Shown: piece by piece, positions 29,321 to 47,862 of the stretch
How the letters are laid out: every line of letters starts with the position of its first letter
How positions within the stretch are numbered: the stretch's first letter is position 1
Virus record (IMG/VR): IMGVR_UViG_3300025316_000590
Coordinates: 64,134-128,133 of that record
DNA from: a virus
Lineage: Duplodnaviria; Heunggongvirae; Uroviricota; Caudoviricetes
Direction: 5' to 3' (one strand)
DNA length: 64,000 bases
Translations under genes and position numbers: made by a program
The notes under the pieces: generated by a model
Told to the model about the DNA's origin: nothing
Database searches by the model: none
What the model saw: only the letters and a program-made list of their open reading frames with translations

Positions 29321-29905
29321 GGTTAGCCATGTTCTACCGTGTAGGACGTGCTGCACCGCACCCTTGCTCACGTCAAGTTCTGTTGCGATTTCTCGAATCA
29401 ACCACCCGATTCCGCGTAGTCTCCATACTTCATGAATATCGTCTTCTGTCAGTTTTGACCGGCAGTGCTGCTCGCCCCTGGGCATTCGACCTTTGGAAAC
29501 AGCATCTCGAATATTGTCTTCTTGTGATCCTAAAAACAGGTGGTCGGGACGGCAGCACCCACGGTTATCACAATGATGACAGACACTCTGGCCTTCCGGT
29601 ATAGGACCGTGGGTTATGATCCATGCCGCCACATGCGGTCCGTACCCCGCGAACTTGCAACTCTCCATAGCCCGTGCTTCCGTGACCACCGAGCCATTCC
29701 CAGCAGCTAGTGGCATCGTCTACTTTTGCAACGCGAGACCATAGACGGTCTGCGAGACTAGCCTCCCGATCTCCGATCAAAATCGCTAGCGGGTCACCGT
29801 GTGTTTTCCATCGCAGGTAGTGCTTTCGGCACCAACCGCGAGCTAGATGCACGTTCGGTTCGCTTGACCCAGTGTCTGACGTTCGCTAGATTTACGTTTA
29901 GCCAT
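29321..29905 (-). pseudogene. Frameshifted HNH endonuclease
   Basis: Pieces HLARGWCRKHYLRW, CWEWLG..GYG and VCHHCDNRGCCRPDHLFLGSQEDN lie in different frames. The last piece is fused to the ligase OB remnant. Confidence 0.8.
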
Positions 29906-29935
29906 GACTGCACTTCTACTGCATGTTGTGGATAG

Positions 29936-29999
29936 AACAGCCTGGAGGTTGGCCCCTCCAGGCTGTTTGTATTCTAGCCCAACTTGCGGAAAGCGTCAA
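29936..29999 (-). promoter_or_regulatory. sigma70-type promoter plus 13-bp hairpin leader
   Basis: TTGACG-17-TAGAAT (29994-99, 29971-76); hairpin 29936-29948/29955-29967. Confidence 0.75.
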
Positions 30000-31054: not shown

Positions 31055-31075
31055 CATCATGCATCTTACGTGCCA
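31055..31075 (-). promoter_or_regulatory. sigma54-type promoter
   Basis: TGGCAC-GTAAG-ATGCATGATG, overlapping the HNH stop codon. Confidence 0.7.
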
Positions 31076-31716
31076 ATATTTTGAATTCGACGGCGTATCA
31101 GAAGCGGCTTGCGGCCTGAACTCATTTTGGGCATGGATAGGGCAATTTCGACTCCGTGTTTTTGAATACGTTCACGAAGCGTTCCCCAGGAAATTCCTAT
31201 GCGTCGTGCCCATTCCGTTAGACTGGCTGTTTGACCATTGTAAGTTAGCGGGGCTTTCCGAATTTCAGTGCGAAAGGCACGATGTGGGTCAACGTGCAGG
31301 CGGATATTCACAGCTTCCTTTGTAATGCCAAGACGACGTGCCCAGCCAGGAGCCGATAAGGTAATTCCGTCGTAAGTGTACATGGCCTTACGACGGTTGC
31401 CCTGCTGTTCCAGCCATGTGGCCCAGCGGCAGTTTTCTGGACAGTAGTTGCCGTCGTTATCGGGGTAGCGATCAATACTATGGCCGGGCGACGGGCGAGG
31501 CCCTATGTCGGCTAGGAAATTATCGAATGACTCGATCCAACGATCACAGACGCGAATTCCTCGACCACCGTAGTTTGCGTATTCACGGCGGTTCGAGTTG
31601 TAGCATCTCTGTAGCATGCCAGTCCAAATACTGTATTCAGTTGGATACTGAGATCGTCGTGTAGATCGCCTGTATTTTCTTCGGACGTTTTCAACGCTAG
31701 AATGGCTTTTAGCCAT
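31066..31716 (-). CDS. Free-standing HNH-type homing endonuclease
   Basis: EYSIWTGMLQRCYN..YGGRGIRVCDRW..SIDRYPDNDGNYCPENCRWAT plus repeated DNA-binding modules. Confidence 0.88.
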   Translation of the reverse strand: MAKSHSSVENVRRKYRRSTRRSQYPTEYSIWTGMLQRCYNSNRREYANYGGRGIRVCDRWIESFDNFLADIGPRPSPGHSIDRYPDNDGNYCPENCRWATWLEQQGNRRKAMYTYDGITLSAPGWARRLGITKEAVNIRLHVDPHRAFRTEIRKAPLTYNGQTASLTEWARRIGISWGTLRERIQKHGVEIALSMPKMSSGRKPLLIRRRIQNIGT

Positions 31717-31744: not shown

Positions 31745-31807
31745 GAACGGTCAAGGTATAGGCACCTTGACCGTTCTTATTCTAGCACGACCCCGTCTAA
31801 CTTTCAA
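31745..31807 (-). promoter_or_regulatory. sigma70-type promoter plus 13-bp hairpin leader
   Basis: TTGAAA-17-TAGAAT with extended -10 TG; hairpin 31745-57/31764-76. Confidence 0.75.
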
Positions 31808-33173: not shown

Positions 33174-33206
33174 GGTTGACCTCGGGCTAGACAAACTATA
33201 ATACTA

Positions 33207-33293
33207 GTGTTGTCAGCACATACCCCAAACACCCCCGTCCCGCAGAGGCTCTGCATCTTCTAGATGCTGTGCTGACAACACCTGCGGGGCGGG
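33207..33293 (+). ncRNA. Endonuclease-leader structured RNA, copy 1
   Basis: 33207-20 pairs with 33268-81 (14 bp); 33234-45 pairs with 33282-93. Starts just after TATAAT at 33197-202. Confidence 0.65.
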
Positions 33294-33310
33294 CTTTTAA
33301 TTCAACGATC

Positions 33311-33985
33311 ATGCCGTACAAAAACCCTGCCGACAAAAAGGCGAATGACGCACGACGTGCGGCGGCTATCCTTGCTGACCCTGTTCAACGGGAGAGACGC
33401 AATGCACGGCATTGTAAGAACTATGCCCGCCTCAAAAAGAACTCATCTTGGTGTAGGAAACGAGCCGAGGATTCGCACCGCCGCAACCAAACCAAATACT
33501 ACGCTGATGTGGCGGCATCCCGCAAGCTCGTGCGGGAGCGGTTATCGCAAATGCGGGTGGCCAACACAGGCAATATCAACGGAAAAACCAAGGCGTATCG
33601 CCAACAGCACCGGAAGCAAATCAACGCCAGTACCAAGGCATGGCTGGTGGCCCATCCTGAACGGGCCAAAGCGTACCGGCGGGCGGCACATCTTCAGGCA
33701 AAATATAAGATGACCCACAAAACATACGAGGAGATGTTTAACGCTCAGGGTGGCGTATGTGCTGCGTGCGGTCAGCCTGAAACAAGTAAACGGCTAGGAG
33801 TGATTCGGCACATGCACGTCGATCACGACCACGCCACCGGCAAGGTGCGAGCCCTATTGTGCCACAGATGTAATTCCGCCCTTGGACTTCTCAAGGACGA
33901 CCGAACACTGGTGGCTAACCTGCTACTCTACATCAGCAAGTACCAACCCGTCACCCGCCGAAGAATTCAAACTGTTGGCACATGA
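33311..33985 (+). CDS. Endonuclease VII-like HNH endonuclease
   Basis: QGGVCAACG..HVDHDHATGKVRALLCHRCNSALG. Confidence 0.9.
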   Translation: MPYKNPADKKANDARRAAAILADPVQRERRNARHCKNYARLKKNSSWCRKRAEDSHRRNQTKYYADVAASRKLVRERLSQMRVANTGNINGKTKAYRQQHRKQINASTKAWLVAHPERAKAYRRAAHLQAKYKMTHKTYEEMFNAQGGVCAACGQPETSKRLGVIRHMHVDHDHATGKVRALLCHRCNSALGLLKDDRTLVANLLLYISKYQPVTRRRIQTVGT

Positions 33986-33996
33986 CGTGCATGATA
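33976..33996 (+). promoter_or_regulatory. sigma54-type promoter
   Basis: TGGCAC-ATGAC-GTGCATGATA, overlapping the stop codon. Confidence 0.7.
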
Positions 33997-34019
33997 CGAC
34001 CAGCGAAAGGAACTGAATT

Positions 34020-34214
34020 ATGAGAATTAGAAGACCAGCAGTCGAATGCCCAAACTGGTGCCCGTACAAGACCTATACGTGGACGACCAAACAACTGGCC
34101 GCGTGGTATCTCAAGTATGGCGAATGGTGCCAGTACGATGGCCGTGTGTGGGTGCCCGTGACGAAACGTCTCGGTGGCGGAGTAGTGAGTGTCAGATTCA
34201 AGGAGAAGGTGTAG
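34020..34214 (+). CDS. Small hypothetical protein
   Basis: AAAGGA RBS. Confidence 0.6.
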   Translation: MRIRRPAVECPNWCPYKTYTWTTKQLAAWYLKYGEWCQYDGRVWVPVTKRLGGGVVSVRFKEKV

Positions 34215-34217
34215 GCT

Positions 34218-34472
34218 ATGAACGTCGGTGACATATTCTACAACACGCAGGACGAGCCATCACTGCCCGGCGTTCCGCCGTTCAAGAAGGGATTCTACAA
34301 GGTCATCAGCATCCGCGACAGCCTGCTCCTGCGACACCTGAAACCGCACCAGCGGCGGATGTACGAAATCCGCCGTTGCACCAAGAACGGTGGCAAACTG
34401 ATGAAGTACCACAACGACTGGTGCTGTACGAAGCTCGACGCGTGGTTGGCGTCCGGTCGGCTACAGCAATAA
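34218..34472 (+). CDS. Small hypothetical protein
   Basis: Lies in the operon. Confidence 0.55.
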   Translation: MNVGDIFYNTQDEPSLPGVPPFKKGFYKVISIRDSLLLRHLKPHQRRMYEIRRCTKNGGKLMKYHNDWCCTKLDAWLASGRLQQ

Positions 34473-34479
34473 ATACGAA

Positions 34480-34500
34480 CGGCACGCCGGTTGCATGATA
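34480..34500 (+). promoter_or_regulatory. sigma54-type promoter
   Basis: CGGCAC-GCCGG-TTGCATGATA. Confidence 0.8.
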
Positions 34501-34630
34501 AGACCGGCATACGAAACAACAGCCGCTCAATAAGCGGAATGCGGGTGCAGGTCTCGTAGACCTGCACCCTGCGGATACAAGAGGCGACGGTCGGCGGGCG
34601 GTGAAGTCCTCACCGCCTGGGCCACCACGG

Positions 34631-34758
34631 TTGACGTAGCGAGTAGATCAGCTAGACTAACGTTAGTCGGTTGACCTTGCACTTGGCCGACGAGCTTTGA
34701 TTCATTTACGCCCAACCCGTCTCACGTCACTCGCAAGGTCAAACGTGGGGCGGGTTGG
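34631..34758 (+). ncRNA. sigma70-type promoter plus endonuclease-leader structured RNA, copy 2
   Basis: TTGACG-16-TAGACT; 34671-80 pairs with 34733-42; 34712-26 pairs with 34744-58. Confidence 0.7.
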
Positions 34759-34776
34759 TGTCGTTAGGATCATATC

Positions 34777-35298
34777 ATGCCGGAAAGACGCAGAATAACG
34801 AGCGTGCGGTTCATACCGCTGACGCAGGGCCGGTTTGCTATCGTGGATGCAGCCGATTACGAATGGCTGACGCGATTCAGCAAGTGGTGCTACAACGGAA
34901 CCAAAGGCTATGCCGTCAGCAGCCTAGTTCGCCGGTTGTCTCGGGCCGGCGAATCGTATCAGATGCACCAGATCATTATGCGGGCTCCTCCCGGCGTAAG
35001 CCCAGACCATAAGAATGGCAACAAGCTCGATAACCGCCGCAGCAATCTGCGGCTGGCCAACGGTACGCAGAATATGGCCAACCGCGATCTACAGAGCAAC
35101 AACACGACCGGCTACAAAGGTGTAGTTAGGCATCGTGGTAAATTCCGAGCCCGCATCGGCGATGGACTTCGCAAGGGTGGTCGGCATCTTGGCATATTCT
35201 TGACCGTTGAAGAAGCAGCTTTGGCCTACAACACGGCGGCTGTTGAAATGTACGGTGAGTTCGCTTGTTTGAATTCGGTTGGCACGCGATTCGCATGA
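34777..35298 (+). CDS. HNH endonuclease with AP2 domain
   Basis: IPLTQGRFAIVD, DHKNGNKLDNRRSNLRLA, and AP2 motif GYKGV..FRARI..HLG.F..EEAALAYN. Confidence 0.92.
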   Translation: MPERRRITSVRFIPLTQGRFAIVDAADYEWLTRFSKWCYNGTKGYAVSSLVRRLSRAGESYQMHQIIMRAPPGVSPDHKNGNKLDNRRSNLRLANGTQNMANRDLQSNNTTGYKGVVRHRGKFRARIGDGLRKGGRHLGIFLTVEEAALAYNTAAVEMYGEFACLNSVGTRFA

Positions 35299-35300
35299 TA
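35280..35300 (+). promoter_or_regulatory. sigma54-type promoter
   Basis: TGGCAC-GCGAT-TCGCATGATA, overlapping the HNH stop codon. Confidence 0.8.
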
Positions 35301-35546
35301 CTTCCATCGTAAACGGTCAGCGTAAATCCTGCGGGCTCCCAAGCCTTCGGGCAGCAAAACAAGGTGGGCATACCCCACCGAATACGCTGACCGCCGCTCA
35401 AACCAGCAGCGAAGGAATGCTAGAATGTCTGAACGAGAAAAAAACGCCTGGAACGAGATCGACGAACAAGCCGCCCGCGAGGGTTCGGCCCGCCGCCGCG
35501 AGTTGCACGGCCCCGAAAACGGCCCCGAAGATGATGGAGACGCACC

Positions 35547-35810
35547 GTGCTAACCGTCGAACTCAAACACGAACGAGCGAAGGGCCGAACCGCCGAGGTC
35601 GCCACCCTCCGCGAAGCATCCGAGACCGTTCGCCTATACATCAGCTACTTTAGCCTTGGGAACGGCAACTGGCAGGGCGGGCTGGTACGCCAGAACGGCA
35701 AGCGGAAGTACATGATCTCTTACAATGGTCGTGTCTGGAAGTATGAGCCGAAAGGCTGGACGAACACGACGCCTGAAATCACTGGTGAAGAACTGGACAA
35801 ACCATTATGA
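35547..35810 (+). CDS. Hypothetical protein
   Basis: ORF in the early operon. Confidence 0.6.
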   Translation: MLTVELKHERAKGRTAEVATLREASETVRLYISYFSLGNGNWQGGLVRQNGKRKYMISYNGRVWKYEPKGWTNTTPEITGEELDKPL

Positions 35811-36160
35811 CCACAGCGACGCAACCGACCCTCGACGCCCGCGGCTGGTTTGACTTCGTCAGCGAGATTCACGAGCAGGTGAAAAAGGCGGGCCGCATCT
35901 ACACGACCGGCCAGATCGCTCGCCGCATCCGGGTCAAAGTCCTGAAGCAGTACCGCGATCAGGGCGACGACGAGATGACCGCCGAACGCGTGCGGCATGG
36001 CCTCGACCGTGTTGGCCCAGGCGGGCTTACCGGAATGATACTGCGATATGTAGAGGGCACCCTGGCCGTGCGAACGCGGGCGGGCGTGATCGATCAGCGG
36101 AACTACCACAACCGCGACGCATTCCTTGCGGCCATCCGAAACCTGAATCCAAGGGCATAG
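35807..36160 (+). CDS. Hypothetical protein
   Basis: ATGA overlap with the upstream gene. Confidence 0.65.
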   Translation: MTTATQPTLDARGWFDFVSEIHEQVKKAGRIYTTGQIARRIRVKVLKQYRDQGDDEMTAERVRHGLDRVGPGGLTGMILRYVEGTLAVRTRAGVIDQRNYHNRDAFLAAIRNLNPRA

Positions 36161-36366
36161 TCATGGACGAAGATATCGACGAACTCGATTACGAGTGCCC
36201 GCCGGTGTGCAGCGAGTGTGGCGAGAATCTTTGCGATTCGTGCGGCTGCTGCGGCAACCCGCACTGCGAAGCGTGCTGCTGCCCGCTTGTGGAACGCGAG
36301 GACGACGCGGGAGAATGAGCCATGAACGAATATGAAAAGTAATTCGCCTCGTTATCCCTAGCGGAG

Positions 36367-36720
36367 GTGATGGAGCTTCGGAAGATCAAGACGAAGCTGA
36401 CCGATCAGTACCTGCATGAGGAACTGCCCACGGTGCAGGGCTGGTGTAACAAGTGCGATGCCTGCGGGGCGGTCGGATACCAAGACCCGCCCGTGATGTA
36501 CACCGATCCCGAGTCTGGATCAGTGATCACGTTGCAGGGCCGTATTTACAACAAGACGATGTTTCGCGCGATCGGCGAGATTTTATGCGAGAAGTGTTTC
36601 GTCCGGGAGTATTACAACGGACCGACCAACGACGTGCCCAAGCGGGGCAACCCACACCTGACGACACCGCACTCGCAGTGGAGTTACGACGGTGGTAGAT
36701 TTGGAAGCGGAGAATGGTGA
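36367..36720 (+). CDS. Zn-finger-like hypothetical protein
   Basis: CDAC and CEKC motifs; GGAGG RBS. Confidence 0.6.
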   Translation: MMELRKIKTKLTDQYLHEELPTVQGWCNKCDACGAVGYQDPPVMYTDPESGSVITLQGRIYNKTMFRAIGEILCEKCFVREYYNGPTNDVPKRGNPHLTTPHSQWSYDGGRFGSGEW

Positions 36721-36721
36721 T

Positions 36722-37054
36722 ATGAACCACGAAGAATTCCTCAAGTTTCTTGGCAGCGAGGCCCGACCCAAGTGTGGCCGGTGCTGGTGGCGGGAGGGCC
36801 GCAAGTGCTACAACGAGAACCTCGGTGCAGTACCGGGCGAGGGTCAGGACATCACCGCTGAACTGTGGGCTACCTGCTCTGCCACACCCGCGTACCAGAA
36901 CAGTCGGGCGACCCTGGCTCAGGCCCTGCCGAACATCTTGCTGGCCGTCGCGGCACAGACGCAGCCCGCTGAAAAGGTTGTCCAGTGCTGCGAAGCTGTC
37001 GAGTCGGCATACGATTCGCATGATACCGCTGGTCAGAAAGGAACTGAATCATGA
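36722..37054 (+). CDS. Hypothetical protein
   Basis: Lies in the operon. Confidence 0.55.
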   Translation: MNHEEFLKFLGSEARPKCGRCWWREGRKCYNENLGAVPGEGQDITAELWATCSATPAYQNSRATLAQALPNILLAVAAQTQPAEKVVQCCEAVESAYDSHDTAGQKGTES

Positions 37055-37509
37055 CTATCGGAACCCCAAGTGTCTGCGAGTGGATTCGCAGCCTGCCGAA
37101 TACTAGCAACGTTCGCCCGTGCCGAGTCACCATCAAGGGCCAAACCTGGGAGGGTGCTTATTACGAGGAGGAACGCGAGTGGCAGCAGGGCATGGACGGC
37201 GTGCAGCGAGGTGAACACAAGGCGGGCGATAAGTACGTCATCCGCCGCATCTACCTGCTCGGCGACCGGCCTGTGTTCAACCGTGAACGTGTCTGCTTCC
37301 CGTCGTATGAGGGCCTGGACTGGTACGTTTCGGGCTACTGCGTCACCTTCAAGCCCGAGCAGAAAAAGTATCATCCCTTCGGCAAGAGCTTTCAGATCAT
37401 GCCGTGGGAGATCGAGGGCAAGCCCGACTGCAAGATCGACAGTCACGAACTGCACCCGTACCTGCGGGTGCCGATGACGGTCGAGTTCATCGAGGAGACC
37501 GCGTCATGA
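37051..37509 (+). CDS. Hypothetical protein
   Basis: AAAGGA RBS; ATGA overlap. Confidence 0.65.
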   Translation: MTIGTPSVCEWIRSLPNTSNVRPCRVTIKGQTWEGAYYEEEREWQQGMDGVQRGEHKAGDKYVIRRIYLLGDRPVFNRERVCFPSYEGLDWYVSGYCVTFKPEQKKYHPFGKSFQIMPWEIEGKPDCKIDSHELHPYLRVPMTVEFIEETAS

Positions 37510-37844
37510 CATGCCCCAACAAGCACCCCGAAGGCCCGGTTTGTCCGACCTGCGGCGGATCCTGTGCTCCGTCCGGAGTCGACAGAGGATCGTGGGTTCA
37601 CTTCCCTGTGACGGCCAGCGGTCGCGTGATCGATAGACTGGCCATCGAAGGTCATGGTGCGATTCAGGTGGACGAGTCTCCCGACCGCGAGCCGCCCATC
37701 ATCGTCCTCGCCGGCCCGATCAAGTTCTGGTGGCAGGAAGGTCAGTGGGATAGCCTGCGGCATCAGGAATACGTGCAGTGGCGGGACGCAGTGCGGGTGG
37801 CCTTGGTGAAGGCCGGATTCGCCGTCTATTCGCCACAGGTCTAG
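37506..37844 (+). CDS. N-terminal half of a split nucleoside 2-deoxyribosyltransferase-like protein
   Basis: IVLAGPI...ALVKAGFAVYSP; continues as 38330..38572 if 37836-38341 is removed. Confidence 0.7.
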   Translation: MTCPNKHPEGPVCPTCGGSCAPSGVDRGSWVHFPVTASGRVIDRLAIEGHGAIQVDESPDREPPIIVLAGPIKFWWQEGQWDSLRHQEYVQWRDAVRVALVKAGFAVYSPQV

Positions 37845-37870
37845 ACATTATGCCCTGTATAGCCTATACT
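37842..37870 (+). promoter_or_regulatory. sigma70-type promoter of the inserted HNH gene
   Basis: TAGACA-17-TATACT; the TAG is also the stop codon of the upstream half-gene. Confidence 0.7.
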
Positions 37871-37874
37871 ATGT

Positions 37875-38333
37875 TTGGAGGGCGTAAGTATGCTATGCAG
37901 AGTATGCAACGAGCGAGAGGTTCCTGAAGGCCACAAACGGAACAGGAATTACATTTGTAGCCAGTGCCACTACGGACGATACAAGGAAAAGGCACAAATC
38001 CTAAATCGAAGGAACGGTAAACGTTACCGCAAGGAGTTGCGGGAACGTATGTTTGATGCTTACGGCAGGGAGTGTGTTTACTGCCACAGCACGACGAATT
38101 TGCAGTTCGATCATACTAACGGTGACGGTTGCCGCAAAACGCGGGGATATGATACGCGGCAGTGGTTTCTGATGCTTATTGCCGCAGGATTCCCGCCTAG
38201 CTGCCAAGTGGTGTGCGGGCAGTGTAACGTAGCAAAACAGAATATGACCGATGCTCAGTTCCGAGCCTGGATCAAGATGGTATATCACGCTATTCACGGC
38301 GTGGAACGGCGACGCATACGGAGTACTACATGA
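37875..38333 (+). CDS. HNH endonuclease inserted in the NDT-like gene
   Basis: YGRECVYC..NLQFDHTNGDG..CQVVCGQCN. ATG at 37890 is an alternative start. Confidence 0.8.
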   Translation: MEGVSMLCRVCNEREVPEGHKRNRNYICSQCHYGRYKEKAQILNRRNGKRYRKELRERMFDAYGRECVYCHSTTNLQFDHTNGDGCRKTRGYDTRQWFLMLIAAGFPPSCQVVCGQCNVAKQNMTDAQFRAWIKMVYHAIHGVERRRIRSTT

Positions 38334-38572
38334 TCCTTCAACACCGAGCGATCCAGGGCCGCTGGAACGAAGGGCTTCAGCGGATTAACGATGCCGCGAT
38401 CATGAACGCCGACGTCATCGTGGTGCTGACGCCGCGGGACGTGCCCGCCGAAGGAACAGCACGCGAGGTCAAATTGGCGAAGCGGTTCAACATACCAGTC
38501 ATTACCGCCCCACCAGGCAGCGATAGAAATCTCAGCACGCTCGTTGAAAGCTGCCTTGAGGAGGCTCGATGA
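38330..38572 (+). CDS. C-terminal half of the split NDT-like protein
   Basis: HRAI..INDAAIMNADVIVVL..GTAREVKLAKRFNIPV carries the GTxxE catalytic motif; ATGA overlap with the HNH stop. Confidence 0.7.
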   Translation: MILQHRAIQGRWNEGLQRINDAAIMNADVIVVLTPRDVPAEGTAREVKLAKRFNIPVITAPPGSDRNLSTLVESCLEEAR

Positions 38573-39477
38573 ACTTCCACGAGTTCCCACTGTTCTACGT
38601 TTCGGCCAAACGCCTGGGCATGGTTCCCAGAGGCGTCTCATCTGCGGTGTTCTACGCGAACCACTTTCGTGATATGCATTGCATCGGAACATCCGCCGAG
38701 GCTGAAGTGCTGGGCGTTCACCTGTTCATGGAAGGCTGGTGGGCGGAGCATAACCGGCCCTTCTATAACGTGTGGCCTAAGATCATCCCGATGCTGACCC
38801 GCCTCGACCTGTCACAGATCACGGGCAAGATGCTGAAGTCTCCCAAGCAGGTCATGTGTCTGCGGTTCCCGCAGGAAGGAAACCCGTTGACCCGCGACGG
38901 CGTGACTCTGCGGTCGATGCTGGTTGGTCCGGTCAGCACAACCGCAGGTCACCCGGCCTATTTCACGGCACAGGACTACGGAGAAACGATAAGCGGCCTG
39001 CCCGTGGTATCAACGAACTGGGTGCCGCTGCGGCCCGACCAGCCGCTGCTGGAGACCTTCGGCGGTTGCAAGAAGCGGGAATCCGCGATGGACGGCATCC
39101 AGATTCCCGAGGAACTAATGCTAGATGTGTGGCGTCTGGTGTTCACCTTGTCCCTACTGGATGATGATCCCGAATTGATCGAACGCATCGTCCTCGCCGC
39201 CGACCGGAACGACTATGATCGCAGCGGTGACCAGAAGTACGTTGCCAAGGCGGAACGTCGCGGCGTGTTGGGTTGGGATATCGGCAAACGTGTCGAGGTG
39301 ATGCCGCACTATCGCCGCCCGCACCTGGGCCTGCGGTGGACGGGCGAGGGCCGTACCGTGGCCAAGATCGTGCCGATCAAGGGAGCAATCATTCACCGCG
39401 AGGCTGTTCTTCAACAGCCGACCGGCGAGGAAGGGCCGGTGGACGTGTCTAATGATCAACAAGGAGACAAGCCATGA
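38569..39477 (+). CDS. Hypothetical phage protein with C-terminal HYRRPH..W.G.GR motif
   Basis: 302-aa ORF, GAGG RBS. Confidence 0.75.
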   Translation: MNFHEFPLFYVSAKRLGMVPRGVSSAVFYANHFRDMHCIGTSAEAEVLGVHLFMEGWWAEHNRPFYNVWPKIIPMLTRLDLSQITGKMLKSPKQVMCLRFPQEGNPLTRDGVTLRSMLVGPVSTTAGHPAYFTAQDYGETISGLPVVSTNWVPLRPDQPLLETFGGCKKRESAMDGIQIPEELMLDVWRLVFTLSLLDDDPELIERIVLAADRNDYDRSGDQKYVAKAERRGVLGWDIGKRVEVMPHYRRPHLGLRWTGEGRTVAKIVPIKGAIIHREAVLQQPTGEEGPVDVSNDQQGDKP

Positions 39478-39911
39478 ACGACAGCGACGTTAAGTATGTA
39501 GCTGTACCCCGCACCAATCCTGAGATGTACCAGGAAATTCGTGCGAAGTACTATTCCCGCAAATGGTGGATGGCTATTGGATTTGATGGCGAGGACGCGA
39601 TGTCGGTCATGGAGGCTATCGGTGCAGCCGTCGATCTTACCGGAGACGTCGATGGATCCGTGCTGTATGAGTGCCCCGTGGGGATTTACGGAGATGACGG
39701 TGTACCAGAGAAAGATATATTCTGCATCCTGTTCATTCACAAACGGGTTGACTGGAATGCAATATTCCGAGCGTGTCGTCAAAATCGCCTGGATGCGTTT
39801 CCAGAGCAGCCGCCCCAGCAGGACGTTTTGATTCTTAGCACGAGTCTGCATAAAACAGCCATGACTACCTACGATAATGTTCTGAGCTGTTACTCGCATC
39901 TGGACAACTAG
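39474..39911 (+). CDS. Hypothetical protein
   Basis: AAGGAG RBS; ATGA overlap. Confidence 0.65.
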   Translation: MNDSDVKYVAVPRTNPEMYQEIRAKYYSRKWWMAIGFDGEDAMSVMEAIGAAVDLTGDVDGSVLYECPVGIYGDDGVPEKDIFCILFIHKRVDWNAIFRACRQNRLDAFPEQPPQQDVLILSTSLHKTAMTTYDNVLSCYSHLDN

Positions 39912-39944
39912 CGTGAAACGAAACGAGTAGACCAGATTGAGGAT

Positions 39945-40136
39945 ATGATGCGATACATAGTAATTGAGCACAACAGCCGTGACCCGCAGAACCCGAAGGT
40001 GAAGGTGTTCTCAGGATCGAGTGCGAAGAGTAACGCACTGTTATTCGATGACGTATCATCGAACACATGCCAGATTTACTTTGTGAAGGGCGACCTGACC
40101 CTCCAACCCGTAGAACGAAACGGAAAGTCATCTTGA
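39945..40136 (+). CDS. Small hypothetical protein
   Basis: GAGG RBS. Confidence 0.5.
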   Translation: MMRYIVIEHNSRDPQNPKVKVFSGSSAKSNALLFDDVSSNTCQIYFVKGDLTLQPVERNGKSS

Positions 40137-40148
40137 TCGGAAGTACCT

Positions 40149-40451
40149 ATGAAATCCAAAGACTGGGCTAATCCGCTGCGGAAACACCTGAAGGCCAAAG
40201 GCTGGGCGAGGCAGGACAGGGGCGGTGTCGAGCTATGGCGGGATCCGATTCGCCGCGACACGCTGGGCCACTCCTTCTTTATGACGTTCGCCGGGGCGGT
40301 CAAAGTGCAGAAGAGCCGCGATGACGGCAGCGACAAGATCACCTGCCAGGCCAACATCGTCGATCACGATTTATTCGGCATTCGCAAGTGCAGTCGCAAG
40401 CCAAAGGCGAACGGGTACTGCCACCAGCACAGGAAGCAAGCACAATCATGA
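40149..40451 (+). CDS. Hypothetical protein with C-terminal Cys/His finger
   Basis: C...CSRKPKANGYCHQH. Confidence 0.6.
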   Translation: MKSKDWANPLRKHLKAKGWARQDRGGVELWRDPIRRDTLGHSFFMTFAGAVKVQKSRDDGSDKITCQANIVDHDLFGIRKCSRKPKANGYCHQHRKQAQS

Positions 40452-40825
40452 AGATCACCATCGTAGACCAGATCGTGCGGCCCAAGGTTGAGGGCGGATG
40501 TGAGTGGGGCAATTTTCGCAAGGTGCTGGTCAGGCTCGTGCGGGGCGGAAAGCCCGTGAAGGAACTGTGGTGGATGCCGGGCTTCACGGGTTGGGCCGGC
40601 AGGGGATGTACCGACTACTATCATTCTCAGCTTATGACCGATGCTGAAGACGGCAGCGGACGCCCGCTGGGCGGGGCCAACAGTGAGTGGAAAACACTGC
40701 ACGAGGGCGGCAGGCTCAGCGTGAAACTTATTGCAAAATACGCGAAGCAAATCGACGCGTTCTTCGGTGATTCGGTGTCTGGTCTTATCAGGAATACCAG
40801 AAAAACCATGATCATCGAGGACTAG
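40448..40825 (+). CDS. Hypothetical protein
   Basis: ATGA overlap with the upstream gene. Confidence 0.65.
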   Translation: MKITIVDQIVRPKVEGGCEWGNFRKVLVRLVRGGKPVKELWWMPGFTGWAGRGCTDYYHSQLMTDAEDGSGRPLGGANSEWKTLHEGGRLSVKLIAKYAKQIDAFFGDSVSGLIRNTRKTMIIED

Positions 40826-40829
40826 TCAA

Positions 40830-41624
40830 TTGCCCCACATGCGAGTCTTCATCCGAGTTAGGCTGAGCGAGGCCGGTCGCCGTGCCGACGTGACCGCCGG
40901 CGGCAATGGGGCAGCCGAGTTTGATATCGAGGTGTTCCGGGCAACGACCGCACCGGATGATTGGGCCGCCGTCGTCGATCAGGCCGACCTCGACCGCGAC
41001 GAAGCTGTCCTCGATATGCGAGGCGGTATCACACGCGACGGCATCACTGTACCCATCGCGGACTTCTCGTGGGTTCCCGACGTCAGGCAGGCCCTAGTTG
41101 TCTATCGGGACGCTGTACGAGAATGGGTACGAATGCGATGGGAGGAGGACACTCGCCGAGCAAATCTGGGCCTGCGGCCTGGTGATTTTGATTTCCCGAT
41201 GTGCCGCGACGTGCTACTGCGGGTGCCGGTCTATGAGAAGACGCCCGGCAGCAGGAACTGGATGGCGTCTGTGCGGCTTGCCCCGAACGCACCGGGAGGC
41301 CTGGATCGAGCGTGGATGATGCGGGTGCGCGACGGCGACGACGGTTACTACAGGCTGCGACCGTTGCAAATAGGTGACGTGGTTGAGTTCGGGGCTGACC
41401 TGCTGACCGACCGCAGTAAGAGGTTCAAAAACCGCTGGTACGGATACGTGGTGCGACGTACCGATGATATGCTCGTCTTGCACAAGACCAACACCGCCGA
41501 GGTGGCATTCCGCGAGGGGGCGGTTTACGCAGCCAGCGTTGCCCCGCCGCCCGTCGTGCCCAAGCCCCGCCGACGCCGAATTGGTGGCCATATCGAGGAA
41601 GAACGCCCGACGTGGGAGCTGTGA
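40830..41624 (+). CDS. Hypothetical protein
   Basis: 264-aa ORF ending RPTWEL*. Confidence 0.7.
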   Translation: MPHMRVFIRVRLSEAGRRADVTAGGNGAAEFDIEVFRATTAPDDWAAVVDQADLDRDEAVLDMRGGITRDGITVPIADFSWVPDVRQALVVYRDAVREWVRMRWEEDTRRANLGLRPGDFDFPMCRDVLLRVPVYEKTPGSRNWMASVRLAPNAPGGLDRAWMMRVRDGDDGYYRLRPLQIGDVVEFGADLLTDRSKRFKNRWYGYVVRRTDDMLVLHKTNTAEVAFREGAVYAASVAPPPVVPKPRRRRIGGHIEEERPTWEL

Positions 41625-41737
41625 GGCGACTTTATGCCGCGTGCGGGCCACTGTAGGCCAGACGTGGCGAGGTGTTCCCGACTGCGGCTACCGGGCCACC
41701 CGAGCCGCCTGCCGCACAGCGGGCCTATACAGGCGGC

Positions 41738-42256
41738 TTACACGGGCGGAGCTTCCACAGTCTGATTCCGAAATAGCACCTCGTCTTCGGGCGACCTGAA
41801 GGCATAGAGTATCATGTCTCCGGTGACAAGGGCTAAAACGTCACACTTACCGTTCTGGAACTGGCGGTTTTTGCAGTGCTGAACAAGACTCGTGGTCTTG
41901 TACATTTTGCCAGTCGATACCTGTACGGTGAGCAGGCGGTCGCCGATACCCACAACGAGATCATGCCCACACCCCGCCGAGATCGCACGGTAAACGTCCC
42001 ACCCACGTCGAAGCATATCGACAGAAACGATTAGCTCATGGGCCGCACCCGTATCGCTGTTGCACTTGCAGCTTGACGTTGCGGATGTGGTTCGGAGGAA
42101 TCGTGTGCCAGAACAATCCCAGATATGATCGGCAGTAGCGATGCGTCGCCGCACTGATCGCCTAGCCGCGTTTGATGCACAAGATCGAGAGCAGAACATC
42201 TGGTTGGCGTTGCCGCTGTACCGCCCTCCGCAGAAATCACAGTAGCCTAACATCAT
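41738..42256 (-). CDS. PD-(D/E)XK endonuclease with N-terminal Zn finger
   Basis: CDFC..FCSRSC; GAAHELIV..L..G.DVY...GHDLVV..LLTVQVSTG; GGAG RBS. Confidence 0.75.
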   Translation of the reverse strand: MMLGYCDFCGGRYSGNANQMFCSRSCASNAARRSVRRRIATADHIWDCSGTRFLRTTSATSSCKCNSDTGAAHELIVSVDMLRRGWDVYRAISAGCGHDLVVGIGDRLLTVQVSTGKMYKTTSLVQHCKNRQFQNGKCDVLALVTGDMILYAFRSPEDEVLFRNQTVEAPPV

Positions 42257-42264
42257 TAGACTCC

Positions 42265-42381
42265 ACCCGCCCGCCGTGCATGGCCATACCACTGGAGACG
42301 CACAGCGGGACGGGTAGGTTTGGTTTGTTAGGTGGTATGGCCGAACAGCAGTCATAATAGCACAAACCAGCCCTGTGACCA
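42265..42381 (-). ncRNA. sigma70-type promoter plus endonuclease-leader structured RNA, copy 4
   Basis: TGGTCA-16-TATTAT with extended -10; 42332-42 pairs with 42282-92; 42300-15 pairs with 42265-79. Confidence 0.65.
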
Positions 42382-42445
42382 ACCTGGCCCTTCGGCAGTC
42401 GCCAGTGACCAACCTCGGTGACCAAGTTCCGGTATTTGATTCAAT

Positions 42446-42466
42446 TGGCACAGCGTTCGCATGATA
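42446..42466 (+). promoter_or_regulatory. sigma54-type promoter
   Basis: TGGCAC-AGCGT-TCGCATGATA. Confidence 0.8.
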
Positions 42467-42522
42467 TGCCTCCTAGAAATACAACCTCGCGGGCCAACGC
42501 CCGCCCAAGCAAGGAAACGAAC

Positions 42523-42828
42523 ATGACCGCCACAACGATTCAACTGTCCGCCCTGGCTGACGTGATCCAAGTTTACAGCGGCAGGGCGAACGCCTGCTGC
42601 TGCGGATGCAGCGGCAAGCATACCGTAGCCTCGGCCCACCGAGCCGAAGCGGCCCGACGCTGCGGATACGCGGTGGCTGACGAGGACGTCAGCGACCGCA
42701 CGGTCAAGCTGATCTACAACAAGGTCGCAAAAGCCGCCGAGGCCGGTGTCGAGTTCATTTGCACGGGCGAGTCGAACTGCTGGTCGGTCGATGTCGGCAG
42801 CCGCACGTATTGCCTGTACATAGCATAA
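42523..42828 (+). CDS. Hypothetical protein
   Basis: AAGGA RBS; contains CCCGC. Confidence 0.7.
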   Translation: MTATTIQLSALADVIQVYSGRANACCCGCSGKHTVASAHRAEAARRCGYAVADEDVSDRTVKLIYNKVAKAAEAGVEFICTGESNCWSVDVGSRTYCLYIA

Positions 42829-42840
42829 AGCAGATTCGGC

Positions 42841-42861
42841 TGGCACGCCATTCGCATGATA
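42841..42861 (+). promoter_or_regulatory. sigma54-type promoter
   Basis: TGGCAC-GCCAT-TCGCATGATA. Confidence 0.8.
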
Positions 42862-42873
42862 TGCCAGCCGATA

Positions 42874-43073
42874 GCACCCTGCCGGTAAGCCCGCAAAGAA
42901 TCGTCGCGGGCCTTGGTGCAACCCACCGACCGCCGTTAAGCCAGCACCTAGCAGGACTCGTCGCTGGCCGGTCGGAAACCGCTGAACCCACGGCGGTAAG
43001 CCCTAGCGAGGCTTTGTGGGGTCTTTTCTTCGGACGGGTTAGGTGGGCGAGGGCTCGTAGCTCCTCGCCCACC
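42874..43073 (+). ncRNA. Structured leader: three related hairpins plus a C(UCGUA)G-capped hairpin
   Basis: Stems read directly from the sequence; no plausible ORF. Confidence 0.55.
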
Positions 43074-43099
43074 AACCTCCTAAGCATAGCAGGTGAACC

Positions 43100-43213
43100 A
43101 TGAACGGTAAACGAGCCATCAAAAAGAGCAGCAGGAACAACCCAGTGAAGAAGTCGCTGCGGTTGGTGAAGGCCAAGGTTCGCAAGCTGCATCTCAAAGA
43201 GCATAAGAACTAA
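43100..43213 (+). CDS. 37-aa Lys/Arg-rich peptide (absent from the ORF track)
   Basis: MNGKRAIKKSSRNNPVKKSLRLVKAKVRKLHLKEHKN; AGGTG RBS. Confidence 0.5.
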   Translation: MNGKRAIKKSSRNNPVKKSLRLVKAKVRKLHLKEHKN

Positions 43214-43224
43214 GGAACCTGAAC

Positions 43225-43488
43225 GTGATACAGGCACTGAAAGATCTGGTCGCCGCCGACCAAACCGAGGTCGCGGCCATCAAACGGCAGTTGCGTCAGC
43301 ACCGCAAGGAGCGATACGAGCAACTGGCTCTGACTCTGATGGCCGAGTTCAACCTGCCCCGCGACCGTGTGGATTGCCACATCGCAGAGGGCCGACTGCG
43401 TAATACCGACTTCGTTGAAGTTTGCCGTATTGCCGAGCGTCAGAGCATCGCTTCGCGGAGACAACTTGATCAAGGAGTTCGACGATGA
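43225..43488 (+). CDS. Hypothetical protein
   Basis: AAGGA RBS. Confidence 0.55.
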   Translation: MIQALKDLVAADQTEVAAIKRQLRQHRKERYEQLALTLMAEFNLPRDRVDCHIAEGRLRNTDFVEVCRIAERQSIASRRQLDQGVRR

Positions 43489-43841
43489 ACGCAAACGAAC
43501 CAACAATTCTCAGCAGCGAAGAAGCTGGCGTGAGGATCACCCTCACGCCCGACAAAAAGGAATGGCTGGAGCAGGGCCTGAAGATCGAGTGCCTGAAGGT
43601 GGACTGCGGACGCGAGTTTGAAGTGGGCCACATCCTCGATCCCTATGGCCCCGCGCCAGCCCTGCGTCTCGACGCTCCGCTGGGCGTCCGCACCGTAGCC
43701 CTAATCCTGAAGGCTTTGGAACTGCGACTTGTATGTATTCCTCCTGGGCCAGCCAATGGGCCTACAACGGGCTACCAGGCTGAAACAGGGGCCGAACGGT
43801 CGCATCGGGCCGCGACCCAATGGCCAGATTTCACCCAATGA
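43485..43841 (+). CDS. Hypothetical protein
   Basis: AAGGAG RBS; ATGA overlap. Confidence 0.6.
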   Translation: MNANEPTILSSEEAGVRITLTPDKKEWLEQGLKIECLKVDCGREFEVGHILDPYGPAPALRLDAPLGVRTVALILKALELRLVCIPPGPANGPTTGYQAETGAERSHRAATQWPDFTQ

Positions 43842-43868
43842 GACGTAGACCGTCGAATTCGGATTTAT

Positions 43869-43889
43869 TGGCACGGCATTCGCATGATA
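43869..43889 (+). promoter_or_regulatory. sigma54-type promoter
   Basis: TGGCAC-GGCAT-TCGCATGATA. Confidence 0.8.
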
Positions 43890-43894
43890 TGCTT

Positions 43895-44184
43895 ACCGTT
43901 CCTGCGGCCCTTGCCTGAGTGAGGTGAAGGCCCGACAAGCGAGGTGCGAAGTACAAGCAATACCGGCTCCGTCCCCCGACGCCAAGATCGAGGGCACGAG
44001 GCCGCAGGAGCGAACGGTCCTTAGAACGCGGGGTAAAACCTGCGGGTCAGGTCTTACGGGAGTAAGACCGCAGCGGTTCGATTCCGCAGGGATCACCTCA
44101 GAAACCGAACTGGCTCGAAAATCATGGCTGGGCAACACTCGCGCGTGAGCCCACGGGTTCCTGCGGCCCCAAGAGCAGTTCGGT
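43895..44184 (+). ncRNA. Candidate ~290-nt structured RNA with an internal tRNA-like domain (44016-44095)
   Basis: Long-range stems, a GGGA tetraloop hairpin, a TTCGATT T-loop and an acceptor-like stem; no credible ORF. Confidence 0.6.
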
Positions 44185-44198
44185 GGATTCACAGCGAA

Positions 44199-44219
44199 TG
44201 GCACAGCCTTCGCATGATA
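44199..44219 (+). promoter_or_regulatory. sigma54-type promoter
   Basis: TGGCAC-AGCCT-TCGCATGATA. Confidence 0.8.
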
Positions 44220-44277
44220 GGGTAGGCAGAAAGCAAACACGACCGAGTCGGGTGACGGCCCAAAGTGCGGCGTCCCG

Positions 44278-44403
44278 TTGACGCCGCAGGTAAACCGACT
44301 AGAATAAGGGCAGTCGGTTGACCTCACAACTTGGCCGACAAACGAATCATGACTAACCAACCCGTCCTGCGTGACTTGTGAGGTCAAACGTGGGGCGGGT
44401 TGG
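44278..44403 (+). ncRNA. sigma70-type promoter plus endonuclease-leader structured RNA, copy 3
   Basis: TTGACG-16-TAGAAT; 44318-29 pairs with 44376-87; 44357-71 pairs with 44389-403. Confidence 0.7.
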
Positions 44404-44423: not shown

Positions 44424-44921
44424 ATGTCGCGTAATCCAGTTGGTACGGCGTGGCGGGACATGAAGTACCGCTGTTTTAATTCAAGCCACCAAGCCTATTT
44501 TAACTATGGTGGTCGTGGAATTACGGTCTGCTTGGGTTTACAAGATTTTACTAAGTTCACCCAGGTTCTAGGCCCACGACCAGAAGGCTACACTCTTGAC
44601 CGCGAAGATAACGAGGGTAGCTACACCTGTGGTGAATGCGACCAGTGCCGGGAGAATGAGTGGGTGAAGAACGTAAGGTGGGCTACGCGAAGTGATCAGC
44701 AGCTTAACCGAAGGACAACGAATCATACCGTACTGTACAGGGGTGTAAGTCTCCATCTTGGAAAGTACTACTTAGCCCAAATTCGCTGTAACGGGTTACT
44801 ACAATACGTGGGGTGTTTTCCTACGGCAAGGGAAGCCGCCATCGCGTACAACCAGGCGGCTACAGCCATTCGAGGGGCGAACGCTAAGATAAACCGAATT
44901 CGGATTCAGACCGGCACGTGA
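44424..44921 (+). CDS. HNH-type endonuclease with AP2 domain
   Basis: WRDMKYRCFN..YGGRGITVC..LDREDNEG..NVRWAT and YRGV..YLAQI..EAAIAYN. Confidence 0.85.
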   Translation: MSRNPVGTAWRDMKYRCFNSSHQAYFNYGGRGITVCLGLQDFTKFTQVLGPRPEGYTLDREDNEGSYTCGECDQCRENEWVKNVRWATRSDQQLNRRTTNHTVLYRGVSLHLGKYYLAQIRCNGLLQYVGCFPTAREAAIAYNQAATAIRGANAKINRIRIQTGT

Positions 44922-47086: not shown

Positions 47087-47148
47087 TTGACACAAGGCCC
47101 AACGTGTACTATGCTGCGGTTCAGCCGCGTGCTTAGTACACGTTGGGC
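47087..47148 (+). promoter_or_regulatory. sigma70-type promoter of the tRNA/tmRNA unit, overlapped by a 15-bp perfect inverted repeat
   Basis: TTGACA-17-TATGCT; GCCCAACGTGTACTA (47097-111) / TAGTACACGTTGGGC (47134-148). Confidence 0.8.
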
Positions 47149-47261: not shown

Positions 47262-47335
47262 CGCGGAGTGGAGCAGTCCGGTAGCTCATGAGATTCATAA
47301 TCTCAAGGTCGCAGGTTCAAATCCTGTCTCCGCCA
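47262..47335 (+). tRNA. tRNA-Met(CAT), initiator-like
   Basis: Full cloverleaf with C1xC72 mismatch and GGTTCAAATCC T-arm. Anticodon arm is TGAGA-TTCATAA-TCTCA. CCA is not encoded. Confidence 0.9.
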
Positions 47336-47413: not shown

Positions 47414-47789
47414 GGGGGCGAATTGGATTCGACCGGGCAGCTAGAAGATTGAGTTGCGTGTCGTGGTTGGTCAGCAGGCCACGTTAATAGCCGACCAAAA
47501 ACTTACTTGCCAAAAACAAGTTCGAGAAGGCTCCGGCCTTCGCCCTCGTGGCCTAATAACCACGAGCCGACTGCGAACCCATCCGAGAGGTTCAAAAGCC
47601 GGCTGTAAACTCGGATCGTTCACGGTCGCTGCTGGTCACGCCGTGGATTAAAAATGCTACCGGCTGGTCGAACGACAACCCTGTTGATCCGGGGATCGCG
47701 AGACGACAGCTTGCAAATAGGATCGACTACACACGTAGACGCTTGATCGGAAATGTCGCGGGACGCGGGTTCGATCCCCGCCGCCTCCA
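47414..47789 (+). ncRNA. ssrA: tmRNA
   Basis: 5' GGGGGCG..GGATTCGAC and 3' GGGTTCGATCCCCGCCGCCTCCA with G3-U70. Tag ORF 47509-47556 encodes AKNKFEKAPAFALVA*. Confidence 0.95.
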
Positions 47790-47862
47790 CTAGGCCGACT
47801 GCACGCCGGGACTACATCTACCATGAACGAAGATGTCTCGGCAAACACCTCGTCGGCCTTTT

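Follow-up and report, generated by a model that had tools for sequence, protein, structure and literature searches.

The window analysed here is a stretch of 64,000 nucleotides comprising bases 64134-128133 of the 192,133-bp IMG/VR record IMGVR_UViG_3300025316_000590, the approximately 99% complete genome of an uncultured lake phage. It contains four nuclease genes that are each preceded by a leader RNA with two long, interleaved helices. Among the selfish genes of large phages, homing endonucleases are the principal ones, and to our knowledge only a few T-even examples show how such genes are rendered harmless. The four leaders (copies c1 to c4) share one layout, in which a sigma70-like promoter is followed by strand A, an A/C-rich linker L1 (13-31 nt), strand B, a second linker L2 (3-22 nt), the strands A' and B', and the start codon of the nuclease gene. 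An earlier note had placed four such A-B-A'-B' elements between promoter and gene; direct reading bore out all four, with their positions and strands. One further copy, c5, lies in the same genome outside the window, and another, c6, lies on the contig L142 of a relative whose DnaB-like helicase is 79% identical to that of the phage. Two accessory hairpins occur in some copies. The GTCGGTT/GGCCGAC pairing reported for c2 and c3 is present and forms a 5' hairpin of 7 bp, H0, with most of strand A in its loop; c1 carries a 6-bp mini-hairpin within L2, P3, and c6 has a P3 of its own with a different sequence. The features are as follows.

33176-33202, plus strand: c1 promoter, with -35 box TTGACC at 33176-33181 and -10 box TATAAT at 33197-33202, read directly and by a consensus scan
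33207-33293, plus strand: c1 leader, with A 33207-33220, L1 33221-33233, B 33234-33245, P3 33253-33267, A' 33268-33281 and B' 33282-33293
33311-33985, plus strand: EndoVII-like gene of c1, 224 aa, Pfam PF02945 (Endonuclease_7), E = 4.6e-21
34631-34658, plus strand: c2 promoter, TTGACG, 16-nt spacer, TAGACT
34666-34758, plus strand: c2 leader, with H0 34666-34672 pairing with 34685-34691, A 34671-34680, B 34712-34727, A' 34733-34742 and B' 34743-34758
34777-35298, plus strand: HNH_3 endonuclease gene of c2, 173 aa, Pfam PF13392, E = 5.5e-8, with a weak AP2 match, E = 0.0044
44278-44305, plus strand: c3 promoter, TTGACG, 16-nt spacer, TAGAAT
44313-44403, plus strand: c3 leader, with H0 44313-44319 pairing with 44333-44339, A 44318-44329, B 44357-44372, A' 44376-44387 and B' 44388-44403
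44424-44921, plus strand: HNH-family endonuclease gene of c3 with an AP2-like C-terminal part, 165 aa, PHROG phrog_374, E = 4e-29
42354-42381, minus strand: c4 promoter, TGGTCA, 16-nt spacer, TATTAT, with a TG extension
42266-42342, minus strand: c4 leader, with A 42342-42332, B 42314-42300, A' 42292-42282 and B' 42279-42266
41738-42256, minus strand: probable PD-(D/E)XK nuclease gene of c4, 172 aa, PF11645 (PDDEXK_5) at 22.1 bits against a cut-off of 26.1, PHROG phrog_5018, E = 7e-12
G000:C1:169407-169482, same genome outside the window: c5 leader, promoter TTGTAC, 17-nt spacer, TATACT, preceding a 145-aa HNH protein, PHROG phrog_2255, E = 1.7e-22
L142:2379-2461, ENA contig: c6 leader, with a promoter, helix A of 12 bp and helix B of 11 bp, no gap
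L142:2486-2917, ENA contig: uncalled nuclease open reading frame (ORF) of c6, 143 aa, PD-(D/E)XK, PF11645, E = 7.8e-25

The length of helix A and the spacing of the two 3' strands are as the earlier note had given them. Helix A consists of 10-14 perfect base pairs that differ in sequence between copies (14, 10, 12 and 11 bp in c1 to c4), and helix B of 12, 16, 16 and 14 bp, with one bulged C in c4. The two 3' strands are contiguous, A' being separated from B' by 0, 0, 0 and 2 nt in c1 to c4, and B' ends 12-20 nt before the start codon in the window copies (12-24 nt across all six). Calculated duplex energies for the six copies range from -25 to -29 kcal/mol for B and from -15 to -23.5 kcal/mol for A. 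Both boxes of the c1 promoter are kept in the relatives L225 and L223, where the changes preserve the consensus. The gene assignments stand as well: Pfam identifies the Endonuclease_7 and HNH_3 proteins, the products of c3 and c5 are HNH proteins by PHROG, and the c4 protein, just below the PDDEXK_5 threshold, resembles (E = 9e-6) the c6 protein, which is a strong PF11645 match.

We then asked how often such an arrangement arises by chance. The scan accepted perfect interleaved stems with A of at least 10 bp, B of at least 11 bp and an A'-B' gap of at most 3 nt. It returned four pairs in the 192-kb genome, whereas 16 dinucleotide-shuffled versions averaged 0.31 and never exceeded 2; these were c1, c2 and c3, with c5 as a new find, while c4 has its one bulge. 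Similarly, the motif CCCGTC followed after 20-50 nt by GGCGGG occurs seven times in the window against 0.72 expected. A chance origin of the interleaved helices is thus excluded. Relaxed genome scans by duplex energy, or with one interruption allowed per stem, gave as many hits in shuffled sequence as in the genome, and no degenerate copies were detectable that way.

Next, we compared the helices between copies. Sequence alignments of the copies with MAFFT were structurally inconsistent. Each A strand pairs fully (10-14 bp) solely with its own A' and forms just 3-7 bp with the A' of any other copy, while L1 and L2 vary freely in length and sequence. Helix A differs between c2 and c3 on both strands of its distal part, and three substitutions in B stand opposite an identical B', where pairing is kept only through G-U. 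The c1 orthologue, found in L225 and identical in ten ENA contigs, has A and A' unchanged and most of its changes in L1; its P3 carries a compensatory swap from A-U to G-C. Every copy is in the sense orientation to its gene, including c4 on the minus strand. Since the substitutions between copies are compensatory or retain G-U pairs, the pairing acts in the sense-strand RNA, and on this comparison we consider the helices to be under RNA-level selection. The covariation proposed earlier is therefore upheld. The proposed constant element of helix 2, CCCGTC paired with GGCGGG through a conserved U-G wobble, fared less well: it is found in the four window copies, but c5 and c6 have C-G at the wobble, and in the c1 orthologue both partners differ, U.G having become A.C. 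What is conserved in sequence across the six copies is a B core of G-Y-CCC paired with GGGGC.

The distribution of similarity around the leaders points to a unit that moves as a whole. Between the -35 box and the ATG, copies c2 and c3 share approximately 80% identity; beyond these limits they are unrelated, and their proteins are 38% identical over 81 aa only (BLASTP). In L225, the upstream gene and the leader are 95% identical to the window and similarity ends at the start codon; the EndoVII protein that follows (L225:3356-3910, 184 aa) is 49% identical to the product of 33311-33985, in the C-terminal half only. Contigs from lake metagenomes join position 33186 to 34444, a joint inside the c1 promoter that skips approximately 1.25 kb. 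Such contigs also connect 34521 with 39376, and whole cassettes thus vary between strains. The unit from promoter to ATG is conserved, but it is followed by nuclease genes that are unrelated or have been exchanged. These genes are therefore interchangeable, and the sequences support well a portable promoter-plus-leader module for homing-endonuclease cassettes. Missing from contigs with the 33186-34444 joint are the -10 box and leader of c1, the EndoVII gene and two small ORFs. In the near-identical strains (L133-L141, at least 99.8% identity), no changes were informative for the leaders; in many near-identical strains EndoVII is called as 144 aa (e.g., L137:10001-10435) instead of 224 aa, a small indel seeming to break the N-terminal part.

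Such modularity raises the question of whether the block serves recombination at the level of DNA, the RNA fold being incidental. T4-type phages contain cassettes known as PeSL, in which an early promoter of sigma70-like type and a stem-loop terminator flank variable genes and mediate gene shuffling (PMC2839356, PMC4122927), and PeSLs have been described as recombination linkers (PMC2839356). The blocks here resemble them as conserved segments of approximately 100-150 bp, repeated in a variable region, with a strong host-type promoter and a stable stem-loop, and homology that stops at the neighbouring ORFs makes a role as recombination linker plausible. The precise limits of c2/c3 homology at the -35 box and the ATG, the nuclease gene exchanged behind a conserved leader in L225, and the lake-strain joint that starts inside the c1 promoter (33186 to 34444) would all fit a linker. 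However, helix A is wholly different between copies yet always perfectly self-complementary, and one-sided changes occur only where G-U keeps the pair and always in the sense strand, the signature of selection on RNA pairing. In addition, the PeSL stem-loop is a simple hairpin that terminates upstream transcription and is described at or before the promoter boxes, whereas the fold here is interleaved, lies downstream of the -10 box in the transcript that the promoter drives, and has a different helix A in every copy. We therefore regard a purely DNA-level explanation as quite unlikely, although a linker and an RNA role are not mutually exclusive.

The second regularity concerns the genes themselves. 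A nuclease gene follows the leader in all five copies of this genome and in the single copy of the relative, and three folds (EndoVII, HNH and PD-(D/E)XK) are represented, in agreement with the claim that the leader is common to unrelated nuclease genes. An arginine-rich stretch of the type RRRI(Q/T/S/A)T is found on every c1-c6 nuclease, at one end or near the N-terminus; the EndoVII proteins of the window and of L225 both end in RRRIQT-x-GT. Arginine-rich peptides are known to bind RNA hairpins, as lambda N does with boxB. The leader might accordingly act in trans or as a protein-binding RNA, either as cofactor or guide of the nuclease or as receptor for the ERRRIQT-like tag, and both the RRRIQT-like stretch on all leader-linked nucleases and the B core conserved across six copies are consistent with this. 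It is not plausible, however, that a single guide would serve three unrelated nuclease folds. Nowhere else in the genome is there a match to strand A, and the leader persists while its nuclease is swapped; the tag is also present on an HNH nuclease that has no leader. The genes encode EndoVII, small HNH and PD-(D/E)XK proteins and not IscB or TnpB, and no copy matched the HEARO or omega RNA families of Rfam. The suggestion that the leader binds the nuclease or serves it as guide or cofactor is thus unsupported, and we consider it highly improbable.

Further searches addressed whether the leader belongs to a described RNA family. With Rfam 15 at the gathering threshold, the window contained matches to tmRNA and tRNA only, and in E-value mode (E up to 10) the copies gave only chance matches to microRNA hairpins, far below threshold; no Rfam family thus matches the leader, in line with the earlier note, which did not recognise it as a named family. 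Several candidates were considered and rejected. The loops vary freely and offer no ligand pocket, and there is no Rfam match, which speaks against a riboswitch. An HDV (hepatitis delta virus)-like ribozyme shares the order of helices; it was rejected because J4/2 could not be accommodated, the lengths of the helices do not agree and Rfam gives no match. A similarity to radC RNA (RF01754) at 42581-42710 on the minus strand (22 bits against a gathering threshold of 40, E = 0.85) lies upstream of the c4 promoter, outside the element, and is probably due to chance. No trans target of strand A was found in the genome. ORFs opening from the first bases of A in c1-c3 and c6 are inconsistent between copies in length and frame; that of c6 (L142:2379-2486) is a 35-codon GTG frame beginning at the first base of A whose TAA overlaps the ATG of the nuclease (TAATG), and the frame that opens at the same GTG in L225 is continuous with the nuclease ORF.

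The leader was also sought more widely. An exact-pattern scan of IMG/VR for CCCGTC..GGGGCGGG gave, among the matches listed, only chance occurrences inside genes in all those inspected, and approximately 1 Mb of unrelated viral contigs from that scan held no promoter-linked case. Single-protein scans of IMG/VR with EndoVII and DnaB returned no close relative. Distant homologues of the HNH-AP2 protein (L009-L013) have short leaders in which the fold is absent. JGI metagenomes gave no match to either a promoter-based pattern or a flanking-protein profile.

What, then, might the leader do? In T-even phages, the homing endonucleases I-TevI, I-TevII, I-TevIII, segB and mobE are held back by leader hairpins, and the hairpin of seg43(25) lies just upstream of the ribosome-binding site (RBS) without covering it (PMC2988022). 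The leaders described here are similar in that a stable RNA structure immediately precedes the ORF of a selfish nuclease in a large phage, where it likely keeps the nuclease low or timed, and in that the fold, like that of seg43(25), stops just short of the RBS and does not clearly cover it. They differ in having two interleaved helices, formed by the 5' end with a hairpin loop, instead of a single hairpin, in having the promoter upstream of the whole fold and not inside it, and in using one module for three nuclease folds. The only promoter-like sites found lie upstream of A, and the phage-specific motif GTGTCTRG is present in no leader. Together with the PeSL cassettes, these T-even hairpins are the closest published systems; the leaders of this phage are set apart by the clasped fold, the upstream promoter and the reuse before three folds. 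A broader likeness exists to H-type pseudoknots and kissing leaders, such as the T4 gene 32 leader and the L5-L13 contact of the cobalamin riboswitch, where a hairpin loop likewise pairs with a distant strand or loop in a 5' leader near expression signals. By comparison, the leaders of this phage have much longer helices (10-14 and 11-16 bp) and no conserved ligand pocket, and it is their two 3' strands that meet in a zero-length junction, not the 5' strand of stem 2 and the 3' strand of stem 1.

With the T-even hairpins as precedent (PMC2988022), the most plausible reading, as had been suggested, is that the leader limits nuclease expression. We propose that it is a cis-acting leader of a free-standing homing endonuclease gene (HEG) cassette, burying the 5' end of the mRNA and holding the nuclease at a low, controlled level, a proposal to which we give an even chance as it stands; cis restraint or timing of nuclease expression combined with a 5'-end cap appears to be the most likely function. 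In this scheme, a host-type (sigma70-like) promoter would fire 0-10 nt upstream of A. The GC-rich hairpin B:B' would form with A' in its apical loop, and the 5'-terminal strand A would pair with that loop, giving a tail-to-loop pseudoknot in c1 and c4-c6 and, in c2 and c3, where A sits inside a small 5' hairpin loop, a loop-loop kiss. The contiguity of A' and B' would allow both helices to stack as a single rod that ends 12-24 nt upstream of the start codon. The module would thus act in cis by burying the mRNA 5' end and placing a very stable structure directly before the ribosome-binding region, with the terminator-like U-tract of c1 perhaps adding to the restraint. Despite the strength of the early promoter, synthesis of a potentially toxic nuclease would then stay low and controlled.

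Several observations weigh against this scheme or narrow it. In the predicted folds of c2-c6, the Shine-Dalgarno sequence (SD) or the start codon is paired, but control folds with shuffled L1 gave similar occlusion (fraction of shuffles at or below native: 0.15-0.91); pairing of L1 with the SD was consequently dropped as an evolved feature. Copy c1 has no recognisable SD. The distance of 0-10 nt between the transcript start and strand A, seen in all copies, depends on a start predicted from promoter spacing only. L2 measures just 5 nt in c2 and 3 nt in c3 across 10-12 bp, and L1 13 nt across 23-26 bp in c1 and c6; by our own geometric estimate, full coexistence of the helices would be strained and hardly possible for c2 and c3, whereas c1 and c6 could just accommodate both, and the single-rod picture may therefore not hold for every copy. 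The earlier note had left open a pseudoknot or a switch between competing helices; as the helices share no strand, nothing forces alternation. Other HNH genes of the same phage have no leader, which is therefore not required for nuclease control. Finally, the divergent relatives available for comparison are few, comprising the sixth copy, one orthologue and one truncated orthologue; the last, in L223, breaks off within the leader and has three changes in A.

Termination provides a different route to restraint. If B:B' were a terminator that forms more or less readily when the 5' end pairs with its loop, the leader would be a transcription attenuator that sets read-through into the nuclease gene. 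In c1, B' is directly followed by CTTTTAATT, a terminator-like U-tract. We also found the same architecture in an AT-rich (28% GC) phage, IMGVR_UViG_3300009537_003934 (record G001), which has two leaders of this topology at L227:2783-2890 and L227:7798-7912, each with a consensus promoter, an 11-bp helix A, a helix B of 12-16 bp and contiguous A'B', and each ending in a clear U-tract (TTTTTTAAAT and TTAAATTTTT). These precede a Rep3 initiator and a DnaG-type primase, not nucleases; they differ from the present leaders, which mostly lack a U-tract, belong to a GC-rich phage, all stand before nuclease genes and have no sequence similarity to them. Within the 1.1 Mb examined around distant DnaB homologues, this phage was the only one with the architecture. 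In our phage, the U-tract is clear only in c1, weak in c2 and c3, and absent from c4, c5 and c6, and termination therefore cannot be the shared mechanism there, a point that also weighs against the cis-acting scheme above. No antiterminator shares a strand with B or B', and termination would follow the rules of the host. On balance, we think attenuation unlikely.

The position of strand A bears on a further alternative, that the leader is mainly an mRNA stabiliser in which helix A buries the 5' end against decay by RNase E/RppH or RNase J and hairpin B is a scaffold presenting A'. Stem-loops at the 5' terminus are established as mRNA stabilisers, and A lies at or near the predicted start in every copy. 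Two other cassettes in the window, which we use for comparison and do not count as copies, also have a hairpin at the very 5' end.

29971-29999, minus strand: sigma70-like promoter followed by a perfect 13-bp 5' hairpin at the transcript start, before the HNH_3/ligase-OB gene
31779-31807, minus strand: sigma70-like promoter with a simple perfect 14-bp hairpin at the transcript start, before the HNH-family gene at 31066-31716 (minus strand)

Both of the other sigma70-like promoters examined before HEG-like genes are thus immediately followed by a perfect 5' hairpin, and a base-paired 5' end looks like a rule for such cassettes, an observation that also favours the proposed cis-acting leader with its buried 5' end. 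Yet a simple hairpin, as used elsewhere by this phage, would suffice for stabilisation, which leaves the GC-rich B core and the contiguity of A' and B' unexplained, and stabilisation runs counter to the known tendency to restrain selfish nucleases (PMC2988022). We consider it somewhat unlikely that stabilisation is the main role.

A more general possibility would join the two phages. The clasped fold may be the form taken in this lineage by a widespread, uncatalogued class of phage early-leader RNA, in which the 5' end clasps the loop of an expression-platform hairpin. That hairpin would be a terminator where the phage is AT-rich and would lie close to the RBS where it is GC-rich. The leader would constitute a topological switch with no strand shared between its states, and in this phage its trigger could be binding of the G-rich B core by the ERRRIQT-like tag of the nucleases, as feedback. 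We put this forward as a speculation that is unlikely as it stands. If the clasped architectures of various phages were indeed one class, they would represent a common and undescribed way to gate early genes. Returning to the proposed cis-acting restraint, the compact module of promoter and leader, portable, unusually folded and employed before three nuclease folds, would be a natural part for expression control.

Several additional features of the window were noted. The hairpin regions of the two comparison cassettes (29940-29999 and 31745-31807, minus strand) read on the plus strand as terminators with T-tracts and are composite promoter/terminator elements. The HNH_3/ligase-OB gene (29513-29999, minus strand) appears to be interrupted, with a 20-codon frame, a stop and a 214-aa open frame; versions of 197-260 aa are found in other strains. 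A full-length tmRNA (47414-47792, 166.6 bits) and a tRNA (47262-47335) lie behind a consensus-like promoter at 47087-47115, TTGACA with a 17-nt spacer and TATGCT.

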